Below are positions 1-15,863 of a stretch of 40,997 bases of DNA, one piece after another. The stretch comes from Flavobacteriales bacterium (GTDB taxonomy: Bacteria > Bacteroidota > Bacteroidia > Flavobacteriales > BACL11), in the NCBI GenBank assembly GCA_002697505.1, contig NZWA01000089.1:1-40997 (forward strand), read 5' to 3'. The position numbers and the translations under genes were made by a program. The notes under the pieces are model-generated. The model searched no databases, was not told where the DNA came from, and worked only from the letters and a program-made list of their open reading frames with translations. Numbering within the stretch: position 1 is the first letter of the stretch; each line of letters starts with the position of its first letter.

Positions 1-960
1 GGTGGTAATCCTTGTTTAGAACAATCATTAGAATCATATGAGTTATGTTGTTTAGTAGAAACATTTCCTGATAACCATGATGACTTTGAAGATTATGCAC
101 GAACACTAAAATATGCATACTTATATGCAAAAACCGTAACACTTGGAAGAACACATTGGTCAGACACAAATCGTGTTATGTTGAGAAACAGAAGAATCGG
201 TTGTTCAGTAAGTGGTGTTGCACAATTTATAACTCACAGAGGTTTAGATGAGTTAAAGGAATGGTTAAATGATGGATACGATGTCATACAAGATTGGGAT
301 GATGTATATTCTGATTGGTTTGCTATACCAAAATCAATTAAAACTACTTCAGTTAAACCGAGTGGTACCGTTTCATTATTGGCTGGTAGTACTCCAGGTT
401 TACATTATCCCGAAAGTAGGTTCTATATAAGAAGAATTAGATTATCAATCAATTCGGAGTTAGTTGAACCATTGAAGAAGGCAGGTTATAAAATAGAACC
501 TGCATTTGGTTCTGAAGATTCAACATTGGTAGTTGAGATACCAGTTGATGTTGGTGAAGGAATAAGGACTGCAGGTGACCTAAGTATTTGGGAACAATTC
601 AGTTTGGCCGCCTTCCTACAAAGACATTGGGCAGACAATCAAGTTAGTTGTACCGTAACTTTTAATCCTGAAACAGAGAGTGAAGAGATACCAAATGTAT
701 TGAATTATTTTCAATATCATTTGAAAGGTATTAGTTTACTACCAAGACATGATTATGGTGCATACAAACAGATGCCTTATGAAGCGATTGATGAAAAAGA
801 ATATAATAAACAAATAAGTAAACTTGGGAAGTTATCATTTGGTGTAATCAAATCAGAAGAGGCCAACATAGAAAAATTCTGTGATGGAGACTTTTGTGAT
901 GTAGAAGAAATCACACCAACTGCAGGTGATAACGATGACCAAGAATATACAAATGGTTAA
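1..960 (+). CDS. nrdJ: Ribonucleotide reductase, class II (adenosylcobalamin-dependent, NrdJ/RTPR-like), C-terminal part; 5' end lies outside the window
   Basis: Frame 1 is open from nt 1, so track ORF 178..960 is only the part after the first Met. Translation starts GGNPCLEQSLESYELCCLVE. This is the NPC-x-E thiyl-radical loop, with a second Cys 11 residues downstream. The C-terminal tail has a CDGDFC cysteine pair like the re-reduction pair of RTPR-type enzymes. Confidence 0.7.
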   Translation, partial: GGNPCLEQSLESYELCCLVETFPDNHDDFEDYARTLKYAYLYAKTVTLGRTHWSDTNRVMLRNRRIGCSVSGVAQFITHRGLDELKEWLNDGYDVIQDWDDVYSDWFAIPKSIKTTSVKPSGTVSLLAGSTPGLHYPESRFYIRRIRLSINSELVEPLKKAGYKIEPAFGSEDSTLVVEIPVDVGEGIRTAGDLSIWEQFSLAAFLQRHWADNQVSCTVTFNPETESEEIPNVLNYFQYHLKGISLLPRHDYGAYKQMPYEAIDEKEYNKQISKLGKLSFGVIKSEEANIEKFCDGDFCDVEEITPTAGDNDDQEYTNG

Positions 961-1037
961 AGGTTTCACATACCCTGGCAGAAGGCACACCAGAATAAAA
1001 ATGTGCTGTTCACAAGTAAACAAACAAGGAGATGATT

Positions 1038-3767
1038 ATGAAATATCGTAATCTAATCGCATCAATGGTATTGATGACAGGATTGTTCGCACAATCTATT
1101 GTTGGAACTATCGTTGATGTTGACTCAAATCCACTTGAGGGAGCTAATGTCGTAGTTCTCGGAACAGATTTAGGTGGAGTATCAGATGAAACTGGTGCTT
1201 TTTCTATTAATGTTTCCGAGGGAACCTATGATGTAGTGGCTTCTTTCATTGGTTACTCTTCAATAACTAAATCAGTAGTTGTTGAGGGTGTATCTACATT
1301 AGAATTCGTATTGGATTTTGATGTGGTTTCCTTATCAGATGTTGAGGTGTTAGCATCTCGTGCATCTGAAACAACACCTGTGGCATACACTAATGTTAGT
1401 AAAGAAGAAATGGAAGTTCGTCTTGGTTCACAAGATATTCCAATGATTCTTAACACAACACCAAGTGTTTATGCTACTCAACAAGGTGGTGGTGCGGGTG
1501 ACGCTCGTATCAACATTCGTGGTTTCAATCAAAGAAATGTTGCAGTGATGATTAATGGTGTTCCCCAAAATGATATGGAGAACGGATGGGTCTATTGGTC
1601 TAATTGGGATGGAGTAGGAGATGCTACTTCTTCAATTCAGGTTCAAAGAGGTCTATCAGCTGTTAATTTGGCAACACCTTCTATTGGTGGAACTATGAAT
1701 ATCATTACCGACCCAACATCTTTTGAAAAGGGTGGGAAGTTCAAACAAGAAGCTGGTGATGGTGGTTTTCTTAAAACTACTTTCAACTATAATACTGGTC
1801 TTTTACTTAATGACAAGTTAGCTTTGAGTGGAACTATTGTTCGTAAAACTGGTGATGGAATCATTGATGGAACTTGGACTGATGCATGGGCATACTACTT
1901 TGGTGGTAGTTATGCCGTGAGTGAAGACCAAAGGTTTGAATTATACGCCATCGGTGCTCCACAACGACATGGACAAAATCTATATAAACAGAACATCGCA
2001 ACTTATTCACAAGAGTTAGCAGGTAGTGTTGATGGATATGACACTACAGCTTTTTCAGAAGGTAATAAGTTTGAGACTGAAGCTGGTAGATTGTTTAATC
2101 AAAATGTCGCACCTATTGACCCATCATATACTGGTCAACAATATTGGTATATGTATGGTGCAAGAACAACTAATAGATTCAACAAGAACTTCTTGAACGA
2201 AAGAGAGAACTTCTTCCATAAACCATTAGTGAATTTAAATCACTTCTTAACTATCAATGATAAAACAAGATTAAGTTCTGTTTTATATTGGAGTGGTGGT
2301 TCTGGTGGTGGTACTGGTACATATGGTAGTGTATCAAGAACACCAGCAGTTGAAGGAGAAAGATGGTATGCAAGTTCACCATGGGCTTGGGATTGGAATG
2401 CAGAGATTGCACAAAATTCCGATAACATTGATGAGAACTTCTCTACCACAGAAAATCGTTCAACAGGTATCCTTCGTAATTCTATTAATCGTCAGAACAC
2501 ATATGGTTTGATTTCTAAATTAAACTATGAGTTGAATGACAACTTAGAACTACAAGTTGGATTAGATTGGAGAACTGCTCGTATAGAACACGCTCGTGAA
2601 GTTCGTGATTTATTGGGTGGAGATTACTATGTTGATTATGCAGACGATAACTTTGAAGAAGGTAAAGTCGTGAGACTCGGTGACGAGATTGCATATCACA
2701 ACGAAACAACCGTAGATTGGTTAGGTGGATTCGTTCAAGGTAATTATACTACAGAAAAACTAAACCTATATGGTATGGGTGGAGTTTCTTCTATTGAGTA
2801 TTCTTATCAAGACCATTTCACTATTGCAGATGAAGTAATTACTGCAGACCCAATCACAACTTACCAAGTTAAAGGTGGTGCATTATATAATGTAAATGAG
2901 AACCTTGGAGTATTCATCAATAGTGGATATGTCCAAAAGGCTCCTATCTTAGATAATGTTATCACTTATGATGGAGTAGTTGCAACAGACCCAGACAATG
3001 AGAAATTCTTACATAATGAGTTTGGTGCAAACTTCGGTACACAAAAACTTGGAGTTAGAGTTAGTGCATACAATACTGATTGGCAAGATAGAAACCTTAC
3101 AAAATCTGTACAAACAGGTCAAGGTTCATCAGGTGATACTGATGTTATCTTCCTAAAAGGTGTAAATCAGAAACACCAAGGTCTTGAGATTGAAACTAAG
3201 ATTCAACCAAATGATATGGTAGAACTTGACTTAATCGCAAGTTTTGGTAATTGGAAATTTGATGGTGATGCCGATGGTACTTACCAAGAAAATGAGTACA
3301 ATGATGAAGGCCAAGTGATTGGTTATCAGACTACTGATTATGCATATGCACTTGATGGATTATATGTTGGTGATATGCCACAGACTGCCTATATTTTAGG
3401 TGTTACTCTTAAACCAATTAAAGGTTTGAGATTACAGGCACTATACAAAACATATGATAAAAACTATTCTGATTGGAGTCCAGACGCAAGAGAGATTGAA
3501 GATGGAGTCGCAGATAGAAGTCAAGTATGGGAAGCCCCAGGTTACTCAAAACTTGACTTACACGCATCATATAAACTTCCTATCAAGGGATACGACATTT
3601 CTTTAAATGCTCATGTATTCAACGCACTTGATGAAGTATTTGTACAAGATGCAGTTGATAATAGTAAATACAATGGGTTCGGTGATAAACTTCACTTGGC
3701 ACATAATGCAGAAGTATTCTTGGGTACACCAAGATATGCAAACATTGGAGTTTCTATTAACTTCTAA
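1038..3767 (+). CDS. TonB-dependent outer-membrane receptor with N-terminal CarboxypepD_reg-like domain (Bacteroidota-style architecture)
   Basis: Signal peptide MKYRNLIASMVLMTGLFA/QS. Beta-sandwich segment IVGTIVDVDSNPLEGANVVVLG...GYSSITKSVVV. Plug motifs (RINIRGFNQRNVAVMINGVPQND, SIQVQRG). Long Gly/Tyr/Asn-rich barrel ending ...GVSINF, a terminal-Phe OMP signature. AAGGAG at 1026-1031 favours ATG 1038 over ATG 1032. Confidence 0.85.
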   Translation: MKYRNLIASMVLMTGLFAQSIVGTIVDVDSNPLEGANVVVLGTDLGGVSDETGAFSINVSEGTYDVVASFIGYSSITKSVVVEGVSTLEFVLDFDVVSLSDVEVLASRASETTPVAYTNVSKEEMEVRLGSQDIPMILNTTPSVYATQQGGGAGDARINIRGFNQRNVAVMINGVPQNDMENGWVYWSNWDGVGDATSSIQVQRGLSAVNLATPSIGGTMNIITDPTSFEKGGKFKQEAGDGGFLKTTFNYNTGLLLNDKLALSGTIVRKTGDGIIDGTWTDAWAYYFGGSYAVSEDQRFELYAIGAPQRHGQNLYKQNIATYSQELAGSVDGYDTTAFSEGNKFETEAGRLFNQNVAPIDPSYTGQQYWYMYGARTTNRFNKNFLNERENFFHKPLVNLNHFLTINDKTRLSSVLYWSGGSGGGTGTYGSVSRTPAVEGERWYASSPWAWDWNAEIAQNSDNIDENFSTTENRSTGILRNSINRQNTYGLISKLNYELNDNLELQVGLDWRTARIEHAREVRDLLGGDYYVDYADDNFEEGKVVRLGDEIAYHNETTVDWLGGFVQGNYTTEKLNLYGMGGVSSIEYSYQDHFTIADEVITADPITTYQVKGGALYNVNENLGVFINSGYVQKAPILDNVITYDGVVATDPDNEKFLHNEFGANFGTQKLGVRVSAYNTDWQDRNLTKSVQTGQGSSGDTDVIFLKGVNQKHQGLEIETKIQPNDMVELDLIASFGNWKFDGDADGTYQENEYNDEGQVIGYQTTDYAYALDGLYVGDMPQTAYILGVTLKPIKGLRLQALYKTYDKNYSDWSPDAREIEDGVADRSQVWEAPGYSKLDLHASYKLPIKGYDISLNAHVFNALDEVFVQDAVDNSKYNGFGDKLHLAHNAEVFLGTPRYANIGVSINF

Positions 3768-3775
3768 TTATAATT

Positions 3776-3807
3776 TGGGTGGTTGAAATATACCACCCAT
3801 TTTATTT
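3776..3807 (+). terminator. Rho-independent terminator after the receptor gene
   Basis: TGGGTGGT (3776-3783) pairs with ACCACCCA (3792-3799) around an 8-nt loop. The stem is followed by TTTTATTT. Confidence 0.7.
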
Positions 3808-3810
3808 AAA

Positions 3811-3847
3811 AAAAAGCTTGACAAGCATAGGGTTTTATTAGTATATT
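3811..3847 (+). promoter_or_regulatory. Class A sigma70-like promoter, copy 1 (A-tract, CTTGACA, ATAG, TATATT)
   Basis: AAAAAGCTTGACAAGCATAG...TATATT. The -35 TTGACA is at 3818-3823 and the -10 TATATT at 3842-3847, with an 18-nt spacer. The same architecture recurs at 15861, 35205 and 40061. Confidence 0.6.
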
Positions 3848-3878: not shown

Positions 3879-6386
3879 ATGTATCAGAACATATATTTTG
3901 ACAATCGTAGACAGAAAGTTCATCTTTGGGATGACAAGAAAGGGTATTTGATTATACCTTATAAAAAGTATGCCTATGTAAAAAATTCAAATGGACATCA
4001 TGTTTCATTATATGGGGATAGATTAAAGAAAGTATTTAATTATGATAAAGAAGACCCAACACTACATGAATCAGATGTACCACCAACAACAAGATTTTTA
4101 GTAGACCAATATACAGACTCAGACGAAGTATCAGAAGGACATAGAAAAGTATTTTTTGATATTGAGGTTGAAGTCACCGATGGTTTTCCTGATGTGATGA
4201 AGGCAACCAATGTTATAACTTCTATTGCATTATACGATTTCATGACAGAGACATACTTTACTTATGTTTATGATGCAAAGAGAAGACTTACATCATATAC
4301 CAAAGATAATAAAATAGTAGAAGTATATGATACTGAATATGAGATGTTGAATAAGTTCTTTCAAAAGTATTTAGAAATTAAACCAACTATTATTAGTGGT
4401 TGGAACTCAGACTACTTTGATATTCCTTATCTATATAATAGGGCAGTAAATGTATTGGGTGTAAGTGTGGCAAACTTGATGTCACCAATATCAGAAGTTT
4501 ACTACAATGATTTTAAAAAGAGATATGTCATTGCAGGAGTTAGTTGTTTAGACTATCTATCATTATATAGAAAGTTTTCGTTCTCTCAACAATCAAGTTA
4601 TCGTTTAGATTATATCGGAGAAGTAGAAGTCAATATGAACAAGGTAGAATACGAAGGAACATTGAACGACCTATATGAAAATGACTTACAGACTTTCGTT
4701 GATTACAATATCCGAGATGTAAAAATATTAGTTGAGTTAGATAAGAAATTAAATTTGATTGAGATATCACGAGGTATTGCACACCTTGGACACATACCTT
4801 ATGAAGAAGTGTTTATGAGTTCAAGATATCTTGAAGGTGCTATATTAGTATACCTAAAGAAACTTGGTATTGTCGCACCTAACAAACCACCAAGACCAAA
4901 AACATTTGATGACGATAAGTTCGCAGGTGCCTATGTTCAACCACCACAAAAGGGTAAACATGATTGGGTATATGATTTGGATATCACAAGTATGTATCCG
5001 AGTGTGATTCGTTCATTAAATATATCACCAGAGACTAAACTTGGTAAGGTTGAAGGTTGGGAAGCAGAAGAATATTTAAAGAAAGATAATGTAAAGACCT
5101 ATACTATGAATGATAAGAAAGGTAAAGAGATAGGTAAGTTTACAAATGGTGAATTAGAAAATTATTTATTAACTAATGATATTAGTATTGCCTCTAATGG
5201 TGTTTTATATCGTACAGATAAACAAGGATTGATTCCTGCACTACTTACCAAGTGGTTCAATGAAAGAGTTGAAATGAGAAAACTTGTTAAGAAATATAAT
5301 GAAGAGGGTAATAAAGAATTAGAAGATTACTTTGATAGAAGACAATACATACAGAAGATTATTCTAAACTCTTTGTATGGTGTATTGGGTCTATCAGTAT
5401 TTAGATTTTATGACTTGGATAATGCAGAGGCAACGACTCTAACTGGTCAAGCCTTAATTAAGTTCAGTAAGAAGATAACGAATCATTTTTATAATAAAGA
5501 ACTTGGTACTAACAAAGACTATGTTATATACATAGATACTGATTCTATCTTTGCCTCTGCTATTCCATTGGTTGAAAAGAGATTCCCTAATCAAAATCTA
5601 AGTGACACAATGATGACACAAAGGATTATGGAAATTTGTAGTGAAGTACAAGACTATCTGAACGATAGTTATAATTTCTTTTCAAAGAAGTTTTGTAATG
5701 TAGAGATAGATAAACATGTATTTGATATTAAACAAGAGGTGGTTGCAAAGAGTGGATTGTTTATTACGAAGAAACGATATGGATTACGAATCATTAATGA
5801 TGCAGGTCGTAAAGTAAATAAGATTCATGTTAAAGGATTGGATACGGTTCGTAGTAACTTTGCAGTTGCGATGAAAGAATTATTGGGTAATGTATTGGAT
5901 GATATACTGGCAGATGTTCCAAAGGAAAAGATTGATGAAAGGATATCATTGTTCAAAAGAAATATGGAATCACTTCACTATGATGTTATGGCAAATCCAA
6001 TCGGTGTAAAGGGTATTGGTAAGTACGAGGTTGAGGAAGAAGACTCACCATTTAAGACATATAAAAAAGGATGTCCTGTACATGTAAAATCTGCAATCAA
6101 TTATAACTCATTATTAGACTATTGGTATGAGGGTAGAAAGTATGAAAGGATTACCAATGGTAGTAAAATTAAGTGGGTGTACTTGAAGAATAATGAGTTT
6201 GGATTTGATACAATAGGTTATAAAGGTTATGAAGACCCACCACAAATATTAGAATTAATTAAGACACATATAGACCATGATAGAATGTTTGAACAGGCAA
6301 TGAGTAAGAAGATTGGTATGTTCTATCAGGCAATGTCGTGGGATGCAGTAGTAGATAAAACAAAAAGTATAGAGAGGTTTTTCTAA
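3879..6386 (+). CDS. polB: Family B DNA polymerase (T4 gp43-like) with 3'-5' exonuclease domain
   Basis: Exo I FFDIEV, Exo II SGWNSDYFDIPYL, Exo III YNIRDV. Pol motif A DLDITSMYPSVI, motif B KIILNSLYGVLG, motif C YIDTDSIF. Confidence 0.95.
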   Translation: MYQNIYFDNRRQKVHLWDDKKGYLIIPYKKYAYVKNSNGHHVSLYGDRLKKVFNYDKEDPTLHESDVPPTTRFLVDQYTDSDEVSEGHRKVFFDIEVEVTDGFPDVMKATNVITSIALYDFMTETYFTYVYDAKRRLTSYTKDNKIVEVYDTEYEMLNKFFQKYLEIKPTIISGWNSDYFDIPYLYNRAVNVLGVSVANLMSPISEVYYNDFKKRYVIAGVSCLDYLSLYRKFSFSQQSSYRLDYIGEVEVNMNKVEYEGTLNDLYENDLQTFVDYNIRDVKILVELDKKLNLIEISRGIAHLGHIPYEEVFMSSRYLEGAILVYLKKLGIVAPNKPPRPKTFDDDKFAGAYVQPPQKGKHDWVYDLDITSMYPSVIRSLNISPETKLGKVEGWEAEEYLKKDNVKTYTMNDKKGKEIGKFTNGELENYLLTNDISIASNGVLYRTDKQGLIPALLTKWFNERVEMRKLVKKYNEEGNKELEDYFDRRQYIQKIILNSLYGVLGLSVFRFYDLDNAEATTLTGQALIKFSKKITNHFYNKELGTNKDYVIYIDTDSIFASAIPLVEKRFPNQNLSDTMMTQRIMEICSEVQDYLNDSYNFFSKKFCNVEIDKHVFDIKQEVVAKSGLFITKKRYGLRIINDAGRKVNKIHVKGLDTVRSNFAVAMKELLGNVLDDILADVPKEKIDERISLFKRNMESLHYDVMANPIGVKGIGKYEVEEEDSPFKTYKKGCPVHVKSAINYNSLLDYWYEGRKYERITNGSKIKWVYLKNNEFGFDTIGYKGYEDPPQILELIKTHIDHDRMFEQAMSKKIGMFYQAMSWDAVVDKTKSIERFF

Positions 6387-6885: not shown

Positions 6886-7617
6886 ATGGATAAAAACAAA
6901 TTAGTTGGGTTTATCAACAAATATCATCTTGGTGGAGAGATAAAATCTACTAAGATTGAATCAAATGGAAAGTCACTTACAACAAGATTTATCTCAGGTG
7001 ATAAGTCTGTAGTTGGTAGTGTTAAAATGGATAAGTTTGATGCGTTTGACCCAAGTGAGATTGGAGTTTATAATACTTCACAATTATTATCACTACTTTC
7101 TGTAGTTGGTGATGATGTGGACTTCACAATAGATAACATGGGTGGAAAGTTTGTATCACTACAAATGAAAGACTCAGGTCATGGAACAACATCAAAATAT
7201 ATGTTGAGTGACTTAAGTGTTATCCCAACACCACCACCACTAAAAAACTTACCAAGTGAATTTGAATTAGAATTAAAATTAGATTCATATTTTATTGGTA
7301 CATTTATTAATGGTAAAGGTGCCTTACCTGAAACTGAAACATTTACAATCATTGCAGACAATGATAAAGTAAATATTGTAATTGGATTTTCTAACATTGC
7401 ATCCAATAGAGTTACAATACCTGTTAGTGTAGATAACTATTCAGATATTGAACCTATTTCATTCAGTGCTGAAATGTTTTCAAGTATATTAAGTGCGAAT
7501 AAAGAATGTCAAAATGCAACTATGAAAGTATCATCTGCAGGGTTATCAAAGATTAACTTCTCAATAGATGATTATGAATCAGAGTATTATTTAGTATCAA
7601 CACAATCTAATACATAA
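6886..7617 (+). CDS. Sliding clamp (T4 gp45-like)
   Basis: Size (243 aa) and position fit. SEIGVYNTSQLLSLLSVVGDDVDFTI aligns by eye with T4 gp45 FDVAIYDLNGFLGILSLVNDDAEIS. RBS AGGAG lies upstream. Confidence 0.65.
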   Translation: MDKNKLVGFINKYHLGGEIKSTKIESNGKSLTTRFISGDKSVVGSVKMDKFDAFDPSEIGVYNTSQLLSLLSVVGDDVDFTIDNMGGKFVSLQMKDSGHGTTSKYMLSDLSVIPTPPPLKNLPSEFELELKLDSYFIGTFINGKGALPETETFTIIADNDKVNIVIGFSNIASNRVTIPVSVDNYSDIEPISFSAEMFSSILSANKECQNATMKVSSAGLSKINFSIDDYESEYYLVSTQSNT

Positions 7618-8837
7618 TGTATTTATCGTACTTTGACAAATTCTATGATATGGAACCTTATCTTTACATAGATGAGGTTGAGTGGGAGTATATCAAAAAC
7701 ACCTTTGATAAACAAGATGTAAGAGAAAGTCTTGCAAAGGTTGCGATGTCTTACCCACCACCATACATGGATATATCTGAGAAAGATGCATTAAAACAAC
7801 TTCAGAAACTAAAAGGAATGAGACATAATGAAATTTTAGTTGAAGGAGAGTGGTTTGCACGAGAAGGTACAGAGTACAGATATGATTTAACTTTTGAAGG
7901 TAAACAACAATACTTCAAAAGAAATAATACAGGTAATGATTCAAGTAATTATTTTCAACAAAAGAATAGGTGGAGTGTTGATGGTACAATTGCACCAGGC
8001 CCACATAGAACATGGGAAAGTCATAAGTTTATGACAACATTAATTGGGTCTGCATACTCTCTAAAGTTACCTAAGATTGATAAGAGTGCATTTCGTGTAA
8101 TGATTGGATTGAGAAAATATATTTGTTCTCAATTCAAACCAAATGTTGCAAAGGTATTGTATGATAAATTAGAGAGTAAAAGTATCTTAGACTTTAGTGC
8201 GGGTTGGGGTGATAGACTTGCAGGATTCTATGCAAGTGAAACAGGTGAGTCTTATCTTGGGATAGACCCACGAAAAGAAAATCATCCCATCTATGAAGAA
8301 CAGAAACAATTCTATGAAAAACATAGAACTATGTTTGAGGTTGATAAAAAGAGTATGTTTGTAGAGTATCCTGCAGAGGACTTTGAATATCAAAAGAATA
8401 TGTATGATACCGTATTTACATCACCACCTTACTTTAGTGTTGAGAGATATAGTTATGATGACACTCAGAGTTGGGTAAGATATAAAGATATTGATACATG
8501 GAATACTCAGTTCTTACAAAAAACATTAGAAAAAATATGGCCTTCAATCAAAAGAGGTGGATATTTATTAGTGAACATTGCAGATGTATTTGCACGAACA
8601 GGTGGACAGAGAAACATGGTAGAGATATGTAATCCTATGAATAATTTCTTAAGTACATTCCACGATTCAGAATATAAAGGTTGTATTGGAATGGAGATGG
8701 CAAAGAGACCTAATAGTGGTGGTGCAGGAATGGCACGAGAGACAGATGAAAGGTTTCAAGACTCTACAATACAAAGAGCAGAGGAAACTAAGGATAAAAG
8801 ATTTTGTGAACCAATTTGGATTTGGAGAAAGTTATAA
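7617..8837 (+). CDS. SAM-dependent methyltransferase with SPPY motif (candidate orphan N6-adenine/N4-cytosine DNA methyltransferase)
   Basis: Motif I-like ILDFSAGWGDRLAG is followed about 75 aa later by motif IV-like VFTSPPYF, then GGYLLVNIADV. A long N-terminal region (~180 aa) has unknown function. Confidence 0.55.
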   Translation: MYLSYFDKFYDMEPYLYIDEVEWEYIKNTFDKQDVRESLAKVAMSYPPPYMDISEKDALKQLQKLKGMRHNEILVEGEWFAREGTEYRYDLTFEGKQQYFKRNNTGNDSSNYFQQKNRWSVDGTIAPGPHRTWESHKFMTTLIGSAYSLKLPKIDKSAFRVMIGLRKYICSQFKPNVAKVLYDKLESKSILDFSAGWGDRLAGFYASETGESYLGIDPRKENHPIYEEQKQFYEKHRTMFEVDKKSMFVEYPAEDFEYQKNMYDTVFTSPPYFSVERYSYDDTQSWVRYKDIDTWNTQFLQKTLEKIWPSIKRGGYLLVNIADVFARTGGQRNMVEICNPMNNFLSTFHDSEYKGCIGMEMAKRPNSGGAGMARETDERFQDSTIQRAEETKDKRFCEPIWIWRKL

Positions 8838-11011: not shown

Positions 11012-11242
11012 ATGAATGACGAAAGACAATATCAAGAACCATTAGACATATCAAAGGCAGATACGATTCAATGTGAAGAGTGTGGAAACGCATCCTTTAT
11101 ACAATCATTTTTCTTAAAGAGAGTATCAGCATTGATGAGTCCAAATGGTAAAGAGGCAATCATACCAATCCAAGTATTTGCTTGTGGTAATTGTGGAACA
11201 ATACCAAAGAACATGATGAGTCAAATTCAACCGAGTGAGTAA
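11012..11242 (+). CDS. Small zinc-ribbon protein
   Basis: CEECG ... CGNCG pairs in 76 aa. Confidence 0.5.
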   Translation: MNDERQYQEPLDISKADTIQCEECGNASFIQSFFLKRVSALMSPNGKEAIIPIQVFACGNCGTIPKNMMSQIQPSE

Positions 11243-12651
11243 TGTATACTAAAGTTGGAGATGGACTACAAGTAGTAAGTGGTGACATAGTTAAGAGTTT
11301 AGTTGGTTTAGAGAATCTAACATACAAGATGTCAGAAGAATTCAACTCTGAAAGACTATGGACACCATCTCATCTTTCCATGGATAACGCCTACAAGACA
11401 GGATATATGGAATCATTCTCACATCAGGCATCTATAATTAATTCATACCATGGTGAAGAAAAAGGAATGTGTTCACCTACAGGATGTTATCATTGTTATA
11501 GTTTCTTAAAAGATAAAAGTGTTACAGATAAATCTTATGTAATGACAAGTAAATGTACACGAATAGAAGAAGAGTGTAATGATTTAGAAAGAATGTTTAA
11601 CTTCACTATATCAGAGATAGTGTTTGTTGGTACTGAGAAATATTGTGAGGATAATTTAAATAAGGCAATGACTTTAACATCACAAATGTTAGACCAACTT
11701 GGTATCAAATATTTTTATGAAGTTGCATCAGACCCATTCTTTGGTGATAAATCAGAGTTAAAAAGAAAAGTACAAATCAATAGTGGTTCTAAGATTGAGA
11801 TTAGAGCATGGATTCCTAACGAAGATAGACATGTTGCAATAGGTTCATTTAATCTACATGGTAGAAAGTTTGTTGATAAATTTAATATACAAGACTCAGA
11901 GATGACTGCATGTTTTGGTTGGGGATTAGAAAGATTTGTAGATGTTGTAAGTAAGTATGACAAAACCATAGATGAAACCAAAATCAACTTTAACTTCAAT
12001 ACTGATAACACTTTTATACCTGAAGTTAGAAAAAATGTAATTGATGGTAATGATGGTTGGTTATTGAGAGGTCAGACTTATTGGTTTGGTAGAAAACCTA
12101 TACATGAATATGAAATCCAAACACCAGATATTGGTGAGGTTGTCTATGAAGACATTGATACACTTGAACAACTTGATGGGTGGACATGGGAAATTCTACA
12201 AGGTCTCAAAGAATGGGACAGATTAAATATGGATTGGATTACCATAGAGACAAGAAAAACTTGGTTATGGGATTTAGAAACTGCAAAGAAAAGAATAAAA
12301 GATGGACACAATTTGTGTGCAATGTTTCACGATGGTAAAATGATACAATGGAATTGGTGGTTTATGGGTGAATTTACTTTTTATGACCACGAGTGGAATA
12401 TTGATATGAACTTACCTAAAGACCATTCTTATGGTGGATATTGGGCATGTTTACCTAAATATAGAACTTCAAGAAAACATGGTAAACTGATAGAACATTT
12501 CTACACTTATATTACAAACTATCTTATTAGAAAGAATATAAAATATGACTTGGCATATGTTGATGGTTGGAACAACAAGGCAATCAGTATACATAAGAAG
12601 ATGGGATATGTGGGTTACAATTGGATGGAAAATGAAAACTTTCTCAAATAA
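11242..12651 (+). CDS. Fusion: class II aminoacyl-tRNA-synthetase-like amino-acid ligase core (N-term ~240 aa) plus GNAT-like acyltransferase domain (C-term)
   Basis: N-terminal half: SPTGCYHCY, KCTRIEE (motif 2-like), FNFTISEIVFVG, ASDPFF, and VAIGSFNLHGRKFVDKFNI...CFGWGLERFV (motif 3-like GxGxxR). This matches seryl-tRNA-synthetase-like amino acid:carrier-protein ligases. C-terminal half: GGYWACLPKYR ... NNKAISIHKKMGY is GNAT-like. Confidence 0.5.
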   Translation: MYTKVGDGLQVVSGDIVKSLVGLENLTYKMSEEFNSERLWTPSHLSMDNAYKTGYMESFSHQASIINSYHGEEKGMCSPTGCYHCYSFLKDKSVTDKSYVMTSKCTRIEEECNDLERMFNFTISEIVFVGTEKYCEDNLNKAMTLTSQMLDQLGIKYFYEVASDPFFGDKSELKRKVQINSGSKIEIRAWIPNEDRHVAIGSFNLHGRKFVDKFNIQDSEMTACFGWGLERFVDVVSKYDKTIDETKINFNFNTDNTFIPEVRKNVIDGNDGWLLRGQTYWFGRKPIHEYEIQTPDIGEVVYEDIDTLEQLDGWTWEILQGLKEWDRLNMDWITIETRKTWLWDLETAKKRIKDGHNLCAMFHDGKMIQWNWWFMGEFTFYDHEWNIDMNLPKDHSYGGYWACLPKYRTSRKHGKLIEHFYTYITNYLIRKNIKYDLAYVDGWNNKAISIHKKMGYVGYNWMENENFLK

Positions 12652-14872: not shown

Positions 14873-15303
14873 GTAAAGTTAAAGGTTTATTTGACCATGT
14901 AAAACAAATCACAAATGTACAGAGTCCTACATATTGGGATACATTAAGTGAGGGTGATAAAAAGACATGGAGTAATTACATGATTCACAGATTTCTTAGT
15001 ATGAAATCAGAGTGGATTCAATTGGTAAATGAAGTACAAAAGTATTGGGAGTTGGCTCCTAAGAATGTGTATCAGTTTTATATTGATGTACTACCACGAG
15101 GTAGAACTTTCCTTAAATACACAAAGTCAAAACATAAGTCAAAAGTAAATCCATGGGTTATGGAACACTTGACCGATTATTTTGAATGTAGTTCAAAAGA
15201 AGTAGATGATTACTTGGAGATATTAACACCACAACAAGTAAAGACAATCATCATGAAGTATGGTGTAGATGATAAACAACTAAAAACAATATGGAGTAAA
15301 TAA
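14869..15303 (+). CDS. Clamp loader small subunit (T4 gp62-like)
   Basis: WSNYMIHRFLS aligns with T4 YSKFMVENALS, DVLPRGRTFLKYTK with AVPRGKRYGKWAK, and VMEHLTDYFECSSKEVDDYLEIL with IIKLLAKRYQVNTNDAINYKSIL. Alignment by eye to T4 gp62. Confidence 0.55.
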   Translation: MSKVKGLFDHVKQITNVQSPTYWDTLSEGDKKTWSNYMIHRFLSMKSEWIQLVNEVQKYWELAPKNVYQFYIDVLPRGRTFLKYTKSKHKSKVNPWVMEHLTDYFECSSKEVDDYLEILTPQQVKTIIMKYGVDDKQLKTIWSK

Positions 15304-15863
15304 TGAGTAAGAATTATAGAAACGAAGAAGCATTTTATATGAAGGAAATGGAATGGGGTGTTAATTCAAAAACAAACACTACTTACATGAACTATGAATT
15401 TGATATAGATTCACTATATTCAACAATAGTGAAATGTGATTATTTGGTTAGAGTGAATCCCAATACAGATATCAATTTAAATATTGCTTCATATGGTGGT
15501 GATGTATATGCAATGTTAGGATTGGTAGATTATATCAAAGGACTATCAGTTAAAGTTAATACACATTGTGTTGGAACTTGTATGAGTGCTGCATCAGTAC
15601 TATTATCATGTGGTACAGGTACAAGAACAATCACTAAACATGGAACCGTAATGGTTCACGAAGGTTCAGCATTTGAGGCAGGTAAGACTACTGATGTTAT
15701 GAAAGGTGTTGACCACTTAAAAGATTTACAGAAAGATATTAATGAAATACTTGGTGAAGTTACAAATAAAGATGCAAGGTTTTGGGAACTTGCAGGAAGG
15801 AACGATTCATACTTTGATGCAGAAACTTGTTTAGAGTATGGAATTGTTGATAAAATTGTATAA
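15303..15863 (+). CDS. ClpP-family (S14) serine protease-like protein
   Basis: GGDVYAMLGLVDYI...VGTCMSAASVLLSCGTG..TVMVHEGS parallels ClpP GGSVTAGLAIYD...GQAASMGAFLL...VMIHQP. The Ser and His positions are kept. Confidence 0.7.
   Translation: MSKNYRNEEAFYMKEMEWGVNSKTNTTYMNYEFDIDSLYSTIVKCDYLVRVNPNTDINLNIASYGGDVYAMLGLVDYIKGLSVKVNTHCVGTCMSAASVLLSCGTGTRTITKHGTVMVHEGSAFEAGKTTDVMKGVDHLKDLQKDINEILGEVTNKDARFWELAGRNDSYFDAETCLEYGIVDKIV

Follow-up and report, generated by a model that had tools for sequence, protein, structure and literature searches.

A 40,997-nt contig from the assembly of a Flavobacteriales bacterium (NCBI GenBank GCA_002697505.1, NZWA01000089.1; hereafter, the window) carries a complete gene for a TonB-dependent outer-membrane receptor (TBDR). 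The gene lies in the replication module of a T4-like phage, between the genes for a ribonucleotide reductase (RNR; nrdJ) and a DNA polymerase (polB). An earlier note on this DNA had proposed such a placement, and the domains, a structural model and the nrdJ and polB flanks bear it out. On balance, the product is probably a working TonB-dependent transporter (TBDT) that was captured once from a Marinimicrobia (SAR406) host, has been kept as a near-core gene, and serves energised nutrient uptake during infection. To our knowledge, the phage auxiliary genes described so far encode soluble or inner-membrane functions. Here, a full TBDT is more tightly constrained than the DNA polymerase across hundreds of ocean phage contigs; if the proposed role is correct, viral reprogramming extends to the initial, energy-dependent step by which cells capture nutrients at their surface.

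The longest open reading frame (ORF) runs from 1032 to 3767 on the forward strand and encodes 911 amino acids (aa). All positions given here are those of the whole window, and aa numbers follow the 911-aa numbering from 1032. Two start codons are available, namely an ATG at 1032 that is abutted by the ribosome-binding site (RBS) AAGGAG and another 6 nt further, at 1038. Because the second ATG alone is conserved among relatives, the true start is almost certainly 1038, giving a product of 909 aa; GGAG, spacer and ATG are kept in all phage TBDR leaders compared. The gene belongs to a self-contained cassette composed of a pseudoknot leader, the RBS, the ORF and a terminator. An RBS and a rho-independent terminator had already been claimed for the gene, and both were located (1026-1031 and, as a hairpin followed by a T run, 3776-3799). 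The conserved pseudoknot leader and the organization of leader, ORF and terminator as one cassette go beyond the earlier note. The cassette and its flanks consist of the following features:

178..960, forward strand: 3' part of nrdJ, encoding a class II (B12-dependent) RNR (phrog_367, E 3e-54), truncated by the window start
964..973, forward strand: conserved box TTTCACATAC, between the nrdJ stop and the pseudoknot
974..1007, forward strand: H-type pseudoknot in the TBDR 5' leader (covariation, 53 distinct sequences)
974-978 with 990-994, forward strand: helix P1 of the pseudoknot
984-989 with 1002-1007, forward strand: helix P2 of the pseudoknot
995-1001, forward strand: A-rich loop 3 of the pseudoknot
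1026..1031, forward strand: RBS AAGGAG, read from the sequence, 6 nt ahead of ATG 1038
1038..3767, forward strand: TBDR gene, 909 aa (Pfam, NCBIfam, AlphaFold2, Foldseek)
1038-1094, forward strand: predicted TBDR signal peptide (by inspection)
1098-1349, forward strand: TBDR CarboxypepD_reg N-terminal domain (Pfam)
1338-1364, forward strand: TBDR TonB box DVEVLASRA (motif)
1368-1694, forward strand: TBDR plug (Pfam)
about 1725-3764, forward strand: TBDR beta-barrel (predicted structure)
3776..3807, forward strand: intrinsic terminator, hairpin GGGTGG...CCACCC (3776-3799) plus T run, closing the cassette
3818..3847, forward strand: sigma-70-type promoter TTGACA-N18-TATATT for polB (11 of 12 consensus positions)
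3879..6386, forward strand: polB, encoding a T4-type family B DNA polymerase (gp43-like; Pfam DNA_pol_B; phrog_262, E 2e-179)

A GC-rich hairpin with a covarying stem follows the TBDR stop in nearly all relatives, and a terminator is called in 38 of 57 relatives under a strict hairpin-plus-T-run rule. No terminator was found between nrdJ and the cassette; therefore, the cassette is probably transcribed, and its expression timed, together with the nucleotide-metabolism and replication genes. Full-length orthologues of the truncated nrdJ encode 672 aa with RNR_Alpha and RNR-II_ins_dom domains, and the best match of PolB among named phages is 45.5% identical.

The protein possesses the testable defining features of the TonB-dependent transporter superfamily. 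Its predicted signal peptide, MKYRNLIASMVLMTGLFAQ with cleavage before S, combines a basic n-region, a hydrophobic core and an FAQ cleavage motif (by inspection), and 16 diverse phage copies all share L18, F19 and Q21. A CarbopepD_reg_2 domain follows at aa 23-106 (58.7 bits, Pfam), and the Plug domain (PF07715) occupies aa 113-221 with 55.6 bits, compared with a cut-off of 23.9, the match spanning positions 3-107 of the 107-position profile. A TonB box, which the earlier note had recommended looking for, is present at the motif level as DVEVLASRA (aa 103-111), located after the N-terminal domain and before the plug; all 62 phage copies compared share EVLASRA, and its A and R are nearly invariant across 143 family members. 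The C-terminus reads ...INF, and a Phe followed by the stop, corresponding to the beta-signal of the beta-barrel assembly machinery (BAM), is found in 80/80 complete phage copies. Other searches with the protein returned its front part: NCBIfam matched the N-terminus alone, PHROGs gave a plug-only match to one family annotated as unknown function, and sequence and profile searches against the PDB gave matches confined to the N-terminal 230 residues.

The barrel was recovered through structure prediction. An AlphaFold2 model built from a 143-sequence alignment reached a mean predicted local distance difference test score (pLDDT) of 85.1 and a predicted template-modelling (TM) score (pTM) of 0.81; a single-sequence model with pLDDT 29 was discarded. 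From residue 232 to the C-terminus, the model consists of a long run of antiparallel strands, of which DSSP assigns about 22-24 long ones. Foldseek placed PqqU first (E 5e-41), then Fiu, FhuA, YncD and FecA, down to 1e-31, with alignments of 819-890 columns to 22-strand transporters and target-normalised TM scores of 0.7-0.82. The predicted structure thus confirms the barrel. Of the Pfam and AlphaFold check that had been suggested, the plug was obtained by profile and the barrel by AlphaFold2 and Foldseek, and the Pfam barrel model PF00593 failed to recover the latter.

Comparison with characterized systems places the protein within the superfamily and outside its best-known branches. It shares with the solved TBDTs PqqU (9c4o), YncD (6v81), FhuA (1by3), FecA (1kmo) and Fiu (6bpm) the plug-in-barrel fold, the Plug domain, the TonB box, the signal peptide and the C-terminal Phe. 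Unlike them, it comes from a lytic-type phage, exceeds them in length by about 250 aa, and carries a CarboxypepD_reg domain and long loops, and its identity to them is 12-14%. The arrangement of CarboxypepD_reg ahead of the TonB box and plug is also found in SusC/RagA proteins (TIGR04056), and the closest PDB sequence matches were 9gbc_A, a "TonB-linked outer membrane receptor" (aa 24-229), and 9hfj_A, the N-terminal domain of a SusC homologue. However, the phage protein scores 58.4 bits against the TIGR04056 cut-off of 368.25 and over aa 23-181 only (NCBIfam). No SusD-like gene adjoins the phage TBDR, which has polB downstream, and no recurrent one was found in 80 cellular loci. By its score and its missing SusD partner, the protein is not a SusC/RagA member, nor does it qualify as a BtuB. 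Its cellular orthologues in Marinimicrobia, Calditrichota, Ignavibacteriota, Balneolota, Bacteroidota and Cloacimonadota, annotated "TonB-dependent receptor", share its architecture and are homologous over the full length; in contrast to the phage gene, they have housekeeping or PF01663 neighbours and lack the pseudoknot leader. No experimentally characterised member of this orthologue family was found. The phage copies thereby flag an uncharacterised, highly conserved transporter family of the Fibrobacteres-Chlorobi-Bacteroidetes (FCB) superphylum as one that is worth carrying for a virus.

Distribution and selection were examined in viral contigs. In a scan of IMG/VR, at least 336 contigs encode relatives, and the best 80 are full length and 71-99% identical. 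The syntenic order nrdJ-TBDR-polB, for which a virome search had been proposed, was found in about 80/80 TBDR-seeded loci, even where PolB is at 46-60% identity. In the converse direction, of the 45 polB-seeded loci that include 2.9 kb or more upstream of polB, 44 carry a full TBDR, and its 3' end is visible in the shorter ones. The region is also present on long contigs (58-216 kb; JGI, Tara/ENA, one NCBI assembly), where the TBDR comes after gp32, UvsX, RNase H, a gp41-like helicase and a 672-aa nrdJ. The TBDR is a near-core gene of this marine T4-like phage lineage. One 58.5-kb phage contig with the TBDR region (L356; CABWZM010000007.1, NCBI assembly GCA_902509825.1) has an accession style that suggests a single-cell genome.

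Two relatives, L229 and L238 (PolB about 60% identical), lack the TBDR and reveal the empty site. In both, the nrdJ stop directly adjoins the same TTGACA...TATATT promoter and polB (L229:4380-4600; L238:1620-1780). Therefore, the inserted unit is the leader together with the ORF and the terminator, and the promoter at 3818..3847 forms the downstream border of the insertion. The spacer between the TBDR and polB is usually about 100 nt, and in some relatives (L360:5835-6215; L025, L039, L047, L062) it measures 450-2400 nt; these enlarged spacers hold extra small ORFs, e.g., one of 126 aa, and represent an insertion hot spot.

All phage copies are intact, with internal stops in 0/81, and the median ratio of nonsynonymous to synonymous substitution rates (dN/dS) is 0.14 for the TBDR versus 0.18 for PolB. 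Median pairwise identity is 74% for the TBDR, 59% for PolB and 83% for the RNR fragment. A comparison of synonymous rates (dS) between TBDR and PolB was dropped as evidence of gene exchange because the pairs had been pre-selected on TBDR identity. Among phage copies, the share of invariant positions is 76% in the plug and 41% in the barrel; the signal peptide and N-terminal domain vary freely, variability being highest in the N-terminal domain and in several stretches of the barrel at aa 600-750. An alignment of 143 phage and cellular sequences has about 130 invariant columns, all of which the phage TBDR retains, including long loop motifs; the motifs GAPQRHGQNLYKQN and NERENFFHKP are kept from phage to Bacteroidota.

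The origin of the gene was traced with a scan of GTDB species genomes, which returned 583 relatives; 80 loci, chosen by similarity to the query, were examined. The nearest cellular homologues are encoded in metagenome-assembled genomes (MAGs) and single-cell genomes of Candidatus Neomarinimicrobiota/Marinimicrobia (SAR406), at 60-73% identity over the full length, followed by those of Calditrichia, Ignavibacteria, Cloacimonadota, Balneolales and Bacteroidota at 46-54% (Bacteroidota 46-50%). Phage flanks were found at 0/80 cellular loci; the Marinimicrobia copies are surrounded by dnaG, cvpA, gatB/yqeY-like, SRAP and methylase genes. In neighbour-joining trees with 50 bootstraps and 62 distinct phage sequences, the phage TBDR clade is monophyletic in 50/50 bootstraps and nested within Marinimicrobia in 41/50. 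Identity between phage and nearest cellular copies, about 69%, equals the deepest divergence among phage copies (68%), which points to a single, old capture of the gene from Marinimicrobia. The phylogeny that had been called for thus named a donor lineage, although it named no substrate.

The same data revise the proposed host. The earlier note had read the domain architecture as a hint of a Bacteroidota host; the phylogeny and the nearest homologues point to SAR406 instead, insofar as one gene can indicate a host. Low-GC Marinimicrobia loci have 29-32% GC, and the window has 32%. The promoters of Bacteroidota are of the -33/-7 type, whereas the promoters found here fit a host RNA polymerase that reads sigma-70-type promoters. 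Canonical TTGACA/TATAAT-type promoters also precede the TBDR in Marinimicrobia and Calditrichia loci (L087, L092, L108, L111). No tRNA genes that might serve as a host clue were found in the window. If correct, the assignment provides a concrete link between an abundant phylum and a globally distributed T4-like phage clade.

Base composition had been taken as a sign of a more recent cellular origin. The raw CpG counts behind this suggestion were about right (1 per 41 nt over 1032-1400, compared with 1 per 81 for polB and 1 per 143 for the glycan island), but the conclusion does not survive normalisation, as CpG observed/expected is 0.52 in the TBDR and in polB alike. GC content at third codon positions (GC3) is 0.23 in the TBDR versus 0.13-0.26 in neighbouring phage genes; the overall GC is higher (0.37 versus 0.31-0.32) because of amino-acid composition rather than third positions. 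Both GC3 and CpG observed/expected have fully converged on phage values. Thus, together with the deep divergence, the transfer is old rather than recent.

The leader preceding the gene contains a compact new pseudoknot RNA of about 34 nt, with the blocks CCTGG-CAGAA-GGCACA-CCAGA-ATAAAAA-TGTGCT, in which blocks 1 and 4 and blocks 3 and 6 pair and the helices are interleaved. Aligned without gaps, 53 distinct sequences show standard pairs in 97.3% of cells, with helix 2 fully paired (100%). Compensatory two-sided changes occur in 6 of 11 pairs, yielding variants such as CTGG/CCAG, CAGG/CCTG and TAGG/CCTA in helix 1 and GCACA/TGTGC, ACACA/TGTGT and ACGCA/TGCGT in helix 2. The observed covariation was reached by 0/500 shuffles, slid controls collapse, and the few G-U pairs fit the sense (forward) strand only. 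Nested minimum-free-energy folding gives the leader no unusual stability (z = 0.10), in line with a pseudoknot this short. A covariance model gave one match in the window (46.6 bits) and one in the relative L081, and none in the 1.3 Mb of the 80 cellular loci or in the empty-site phages; a regular-expression search of host leaders was also negative. In IMG/VR, an exact-pattern scan found the element in at least 120 contigs, and all 101 of the 101 evaluable instances lie directly upstream of a TBDR ORF.

Rfam gave no match to the pseudoknot at gathering scores, and of two variants scanned permissively as 141-nt stretches, one returned only a 12-bit noise hit and the other nothing. By analogy, the pseudoknot most likely controls translation or mRNA stability, either through protein binding, as in the T4 gene 32 operator, or through a ligand. 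The T4 gene 32 mRNA leader pseudoknot is a translational operator; alike are the 5' H-type pseudoknot in a T4-like phage and the unstructured A-rich stretch leading into the RBS, and in the present leader the pseudoknot is likewise followed by an unstructured A/C-rich stretch and the RBS. The new element differs in showing no sequence similarity to it and in standing ahead of a transporter gene instead of gene 32. Class I preQ1 and SAM-II-type riboswitches share its size of about 34 nt and its order of elements (5' strand of P1, loop, 5' strand of P2 ending in ACACC, 3' strand of P1, A-rich loop 3, 3' strand of P2), but the Rfam scores are at noise level, P2 is a stable 6-bp helix and the RBS lies outside the fold. 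Membership is supported neither in the T4 gene 32 operator class nor in the class I preQ1 riboswitches. The RNA, small and with strong covariation support, lends itself to a direct test of ligand or protein binding.

Other functions for the leader elements were considered. A role of the pseudoknot as a signal for readthrough of the nrdJ stop codon was rejected, since the spacing between pseudoknot and stop is not constant (about 6 to 35 nt). Likewise, the A-rich loop was rejected as a T4 late promoter (TATAAATA), the sequence not being conserved as such. The box TTTCACATAC is present in most, not all, phage leaders, and a similar TTCACATACCCC occurs in the leader of a cellular orthologue (L084); the two may represent a shared promoter or regulator site.

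Energised uptake during infection is suggested by the retained export and insertion signals, the conserved TonB box and plug, and the family-wide ligand-side motifs. Following its synthesis, the protein would be exported by Sec through the predicted signal peptide and inserted into the outer membrane by BAM through the C-terminal Phe signal. The host TonB-ExbBD complex would then energise it through the invariant TonB box, such that uptake of one conserved small substrate would rise while the phage replicates. The nutrient-uptake role mentioned in the earlier note fits the conservation pattern best.

With respect to the substrate, clues come from the surroundings of the gene. Of the 69 cellular loci that extend far enough downstream, 13 have a co-oriented gene for a secreted PF01663 nucleotide pyrophosphatase/phosphodiesterase 3-326 nt behind the orthologue; these 13 loci (L119, L129, L133, L135, L137, L143, L145, L146, L149, L150, L152, L157 and L159) represent four distant lineages, namely Calditrichia, Melioribacteraceae, Bacteroidales/Bacteroidetes and Gracilimonas. 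Additionally, an e(P4)-type acid phosphatase lies upstream in three cellular loci and a deoxynucleoside kinase downstream in three Marinimicrobia loci, and the phage TBDR itself is placed in the phage nucleotide-metabolism module. TBDTs of Bacteroidetes have been reported to be induced by phosphate depletion and linked to organophosphorus use (PMC8115612). Based on the PF01663 neighbourhood, the phosphate-depletion TBDTs and the position in the nucleotide module, a nucleotide-derived or other organophosphate compound is the best guess, weakly held; such a compound could feed phage DNA synthesis. A wider proposal, equally tentative, is that these are SAR406 phages with the first known virus-encoded TonB uptake, that a nucleotide, an organophosphate or another cofactor fuels a genome of ~200 kb, and that the new pseudoknot class is a ligand sensor or a phage-protein operator.

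The cellular origin, viral flanks and purifying selection (dN/dS 0.14) identify the gene, on comparative grounds, as a probable auxiliary metabolic gene. Cyanophage pstS and phoA are phage auxiliary genes for nutrient acquisition and encode periplasmic binding proteins or enzymes. Similar to these, the TBDR is a host-derived uptake component of marine T4-like phages that presumably relieves a nutrient bottleneck in DNA replication; unlike them, it is a 909-aa integral outer-membrane active transporter in need of Sec, BAM and TonB, and its host lineage differs.

Several observations weigh against this account, in whole or in part. PF00593 gave no match to the phage TBDR at E<=0.01, while it does match cellular orthologues, and the structural matches are unspecific, comprising siderophore, PQQ and copper transporters at 12-14% identity, and name no substrate. 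No tonB, exbB or exbD was found among the about 38 window ORFs scanned; therefore, function would depend entirely on host machinery. The host assignment draws on one gene, and a 4.3-kb contig binned to a Marinimicrobia MAG (L082; JAFMFP010000048.1) falls inside the phage clade at 67-75% identity, with 985 nt of ORF-free upstream DNA and neither nrdJ nor the pseudoknot leader; it could represent a phage-to-cell back-transfer or another phage or mobile context. TBDR and PolB distances correlate weakly (Spearman 0.38; L001-L081 pairs), and some phage pairs have near-identical TBDRs with PolB 60-70% identical. Thus, some exchange of the TBDR among phages is likely, as judged from these distances. 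The PF01663 pairing comes from orthologues only 46-50% identical and is merely a nearby placement in two Marinimicrobia loci, and no PF01663 phosphodiesterase was found in 3.4 Mb of phage loci. Finally, 18 nt separate the pseudoknot from the RBS downstream, which it neither pairs with nor sequesters; no classical translational riboswitch is thus apparent.

One competing explanation assigns the transporter to cobalamin, with the TBDR supplying B12 that is converted to adenosylcobalamin for the class II RNR, whose gene is the direct upstream neighbour and probably shares its transcript. The adjacency to nrdJ with no intervening terminator at essentially all loci and the class II insertion domain of the nrdJ product speak for it, as does the widespread occurrence of B12-dependent RNR in marine virioplankton (bioRxiv 10.1101/2023.03.13.532061). 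A few members are even auto-annotated by JGI as "outer membrane cobalamin receptor", but these names are generic KEGG Orthology (KO) transfers, and other members are called "iron complex receptor". Moreover, L229 and L238 keep nrdJ without the TBDR. Rfam identified no cobalamin or other riboswitch in the window or in 22 cellular orthologue loci, no NCBIfam BtuB-type or B12 model matched at E<=0.01, BtuB was not in the top 50 structural matches, and btuF, btuCD or btuG-like neighbours were missing at the cellular loci. Beyond the position next to nrdJ, no support for a cobalamin importer was found, and this reading is quite unlikely. Alternatively, transport could be irrelevant and the protein could remodel the cell surface, whether as a decoy, as a replacement of the host receptor orthologue, or as a block to superinfection or re-adsorption; a decoy and superinfection exclusion were among the possibilities in the earlier note. 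TBDRs are common phage receptors with which phages interfere, and FhuA bound to the T5 lipoprotein Llp and to pb5 is among the structural hits; the large glycan-biosynthesis island of the same window suggests an investment in envelope remodelling, and the N-terminal domain and the barrel segments at aa 600-750 are the most variable. However, the parts that a decoy would not need, the TonB box and plug, are the most conserved (76% invariant; EVLASRA invariant) and are left unexplained, and the retention of GAPQRHGQNLYKQN and NERENFFHKP from phage to Bacteroidota argues for the same ligand. Extra receptors would also raise, not lower, the adsorption of phages using the TBDR, and pre-existing host receptors would stay in the membrane. 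We give surface remodelling a small chance; the conserved TonB box and plug alongside a variable signal peptide and N-terminal domain lead one to expect energised transport rather than a passive decoy.

The remaining explanation is that the gene is an artefact or a passenger, i.e., an assembly chimera, a mis-binned bacterial fragment or a recent, decaying insertion. Such a view could draw on the overall GC of the TBDR, which exceeds that of its neighbours, on the missing Pfam barrel match and on the near absence of full-length TBDRs from curated phage collections. A chimera, which the earlier note had named as one outcome that would overturn its claim, is excluded by the recurrence of the same junctions in hundreds of independent syntenic contigs from many samples. 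All copies are intact and under purifying selection, GC3 and CpG observed/expected are phage-like, the GC excess stems from amino-acid composition and not from third positions, and a phage-specific leader RNA is present. This explanation is already refuted by the evidence and retains a negligible probability. Energised uptake by a functional phage-borne TBDT remains the preferred reading.

In relation to previous work, the gene represents a known protein family and a known auxiliary-gene concept in an unprecedented form: an active transporter of the outer membrane, near-core within a phage clade, with its own undescribed leader RNA. The rarity of full-size TBDRs in phages, remarked on previously, holds in curated collections. 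A protein search of INPHARED gave no close match, with hits at <=31% identity and full-length ones at about 30%, and a megablast search of INPHARED with 25 kb gave no match. The INPHARED hits were rejected as relatives at this identity, being mostly short gut contigs or plug fragments of huge phages. Among them, MT837399.1 and MT837128.1 are short human-gut "Bacteriophage sp." contigs with full-length TBDRs about 30% identical, which may be either real phage genes or bacterial contamination, and the huge phages LR756501-3 and LR745206 contain plug-like fragments. BFVD contains one unrelated "TonB-dependent receptor SusC [uncultured marine phage]" at 12% identity. The TonB-dependent receptor of pelagiphage Skadi was also set aside as unrelated; it is placed in the Skadi structural module. 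Full-text literature searches found no description of this TBDR gene or of T4-like SAR406 phages carrying it. For SAR406 viruses in general, these searches yielded only viral contigs associated with single amplified genomes (SAGs) and no isolates; from Marinimicrobia single cells, only short myovirus fragments have been reported (PMC4611503).

Downstream of polB, the window continues with a clamp loader and then a long glycan-biosynthesis island. One or two N6/N4 DNA-methylase-like genes with weak Pfam matches lie between the presumed sliding clamp and the clamp loader (7617-8837, forward strand), with equivalents in L081 and L356. The large sugar/envelope gene island (9760-34314, forward strand) encodes several family 2 glycosyltransferases, a UDP-glucose dehydrogenase, an NAD-dependent epimerase/dehydratase and a cytidylyltransferase, as well as an MptE-like protein, a 4Fe-4S protein and a radical SAM/SPASM enzyme. 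Interspersed in the island are genes for ClpP (15303-15863), a class II aminoacyl-tRNA synthetase-like protein (11242-12651), a PD-(D/E)XK nuclease and a DUF1599 nucleotide-modification domain.

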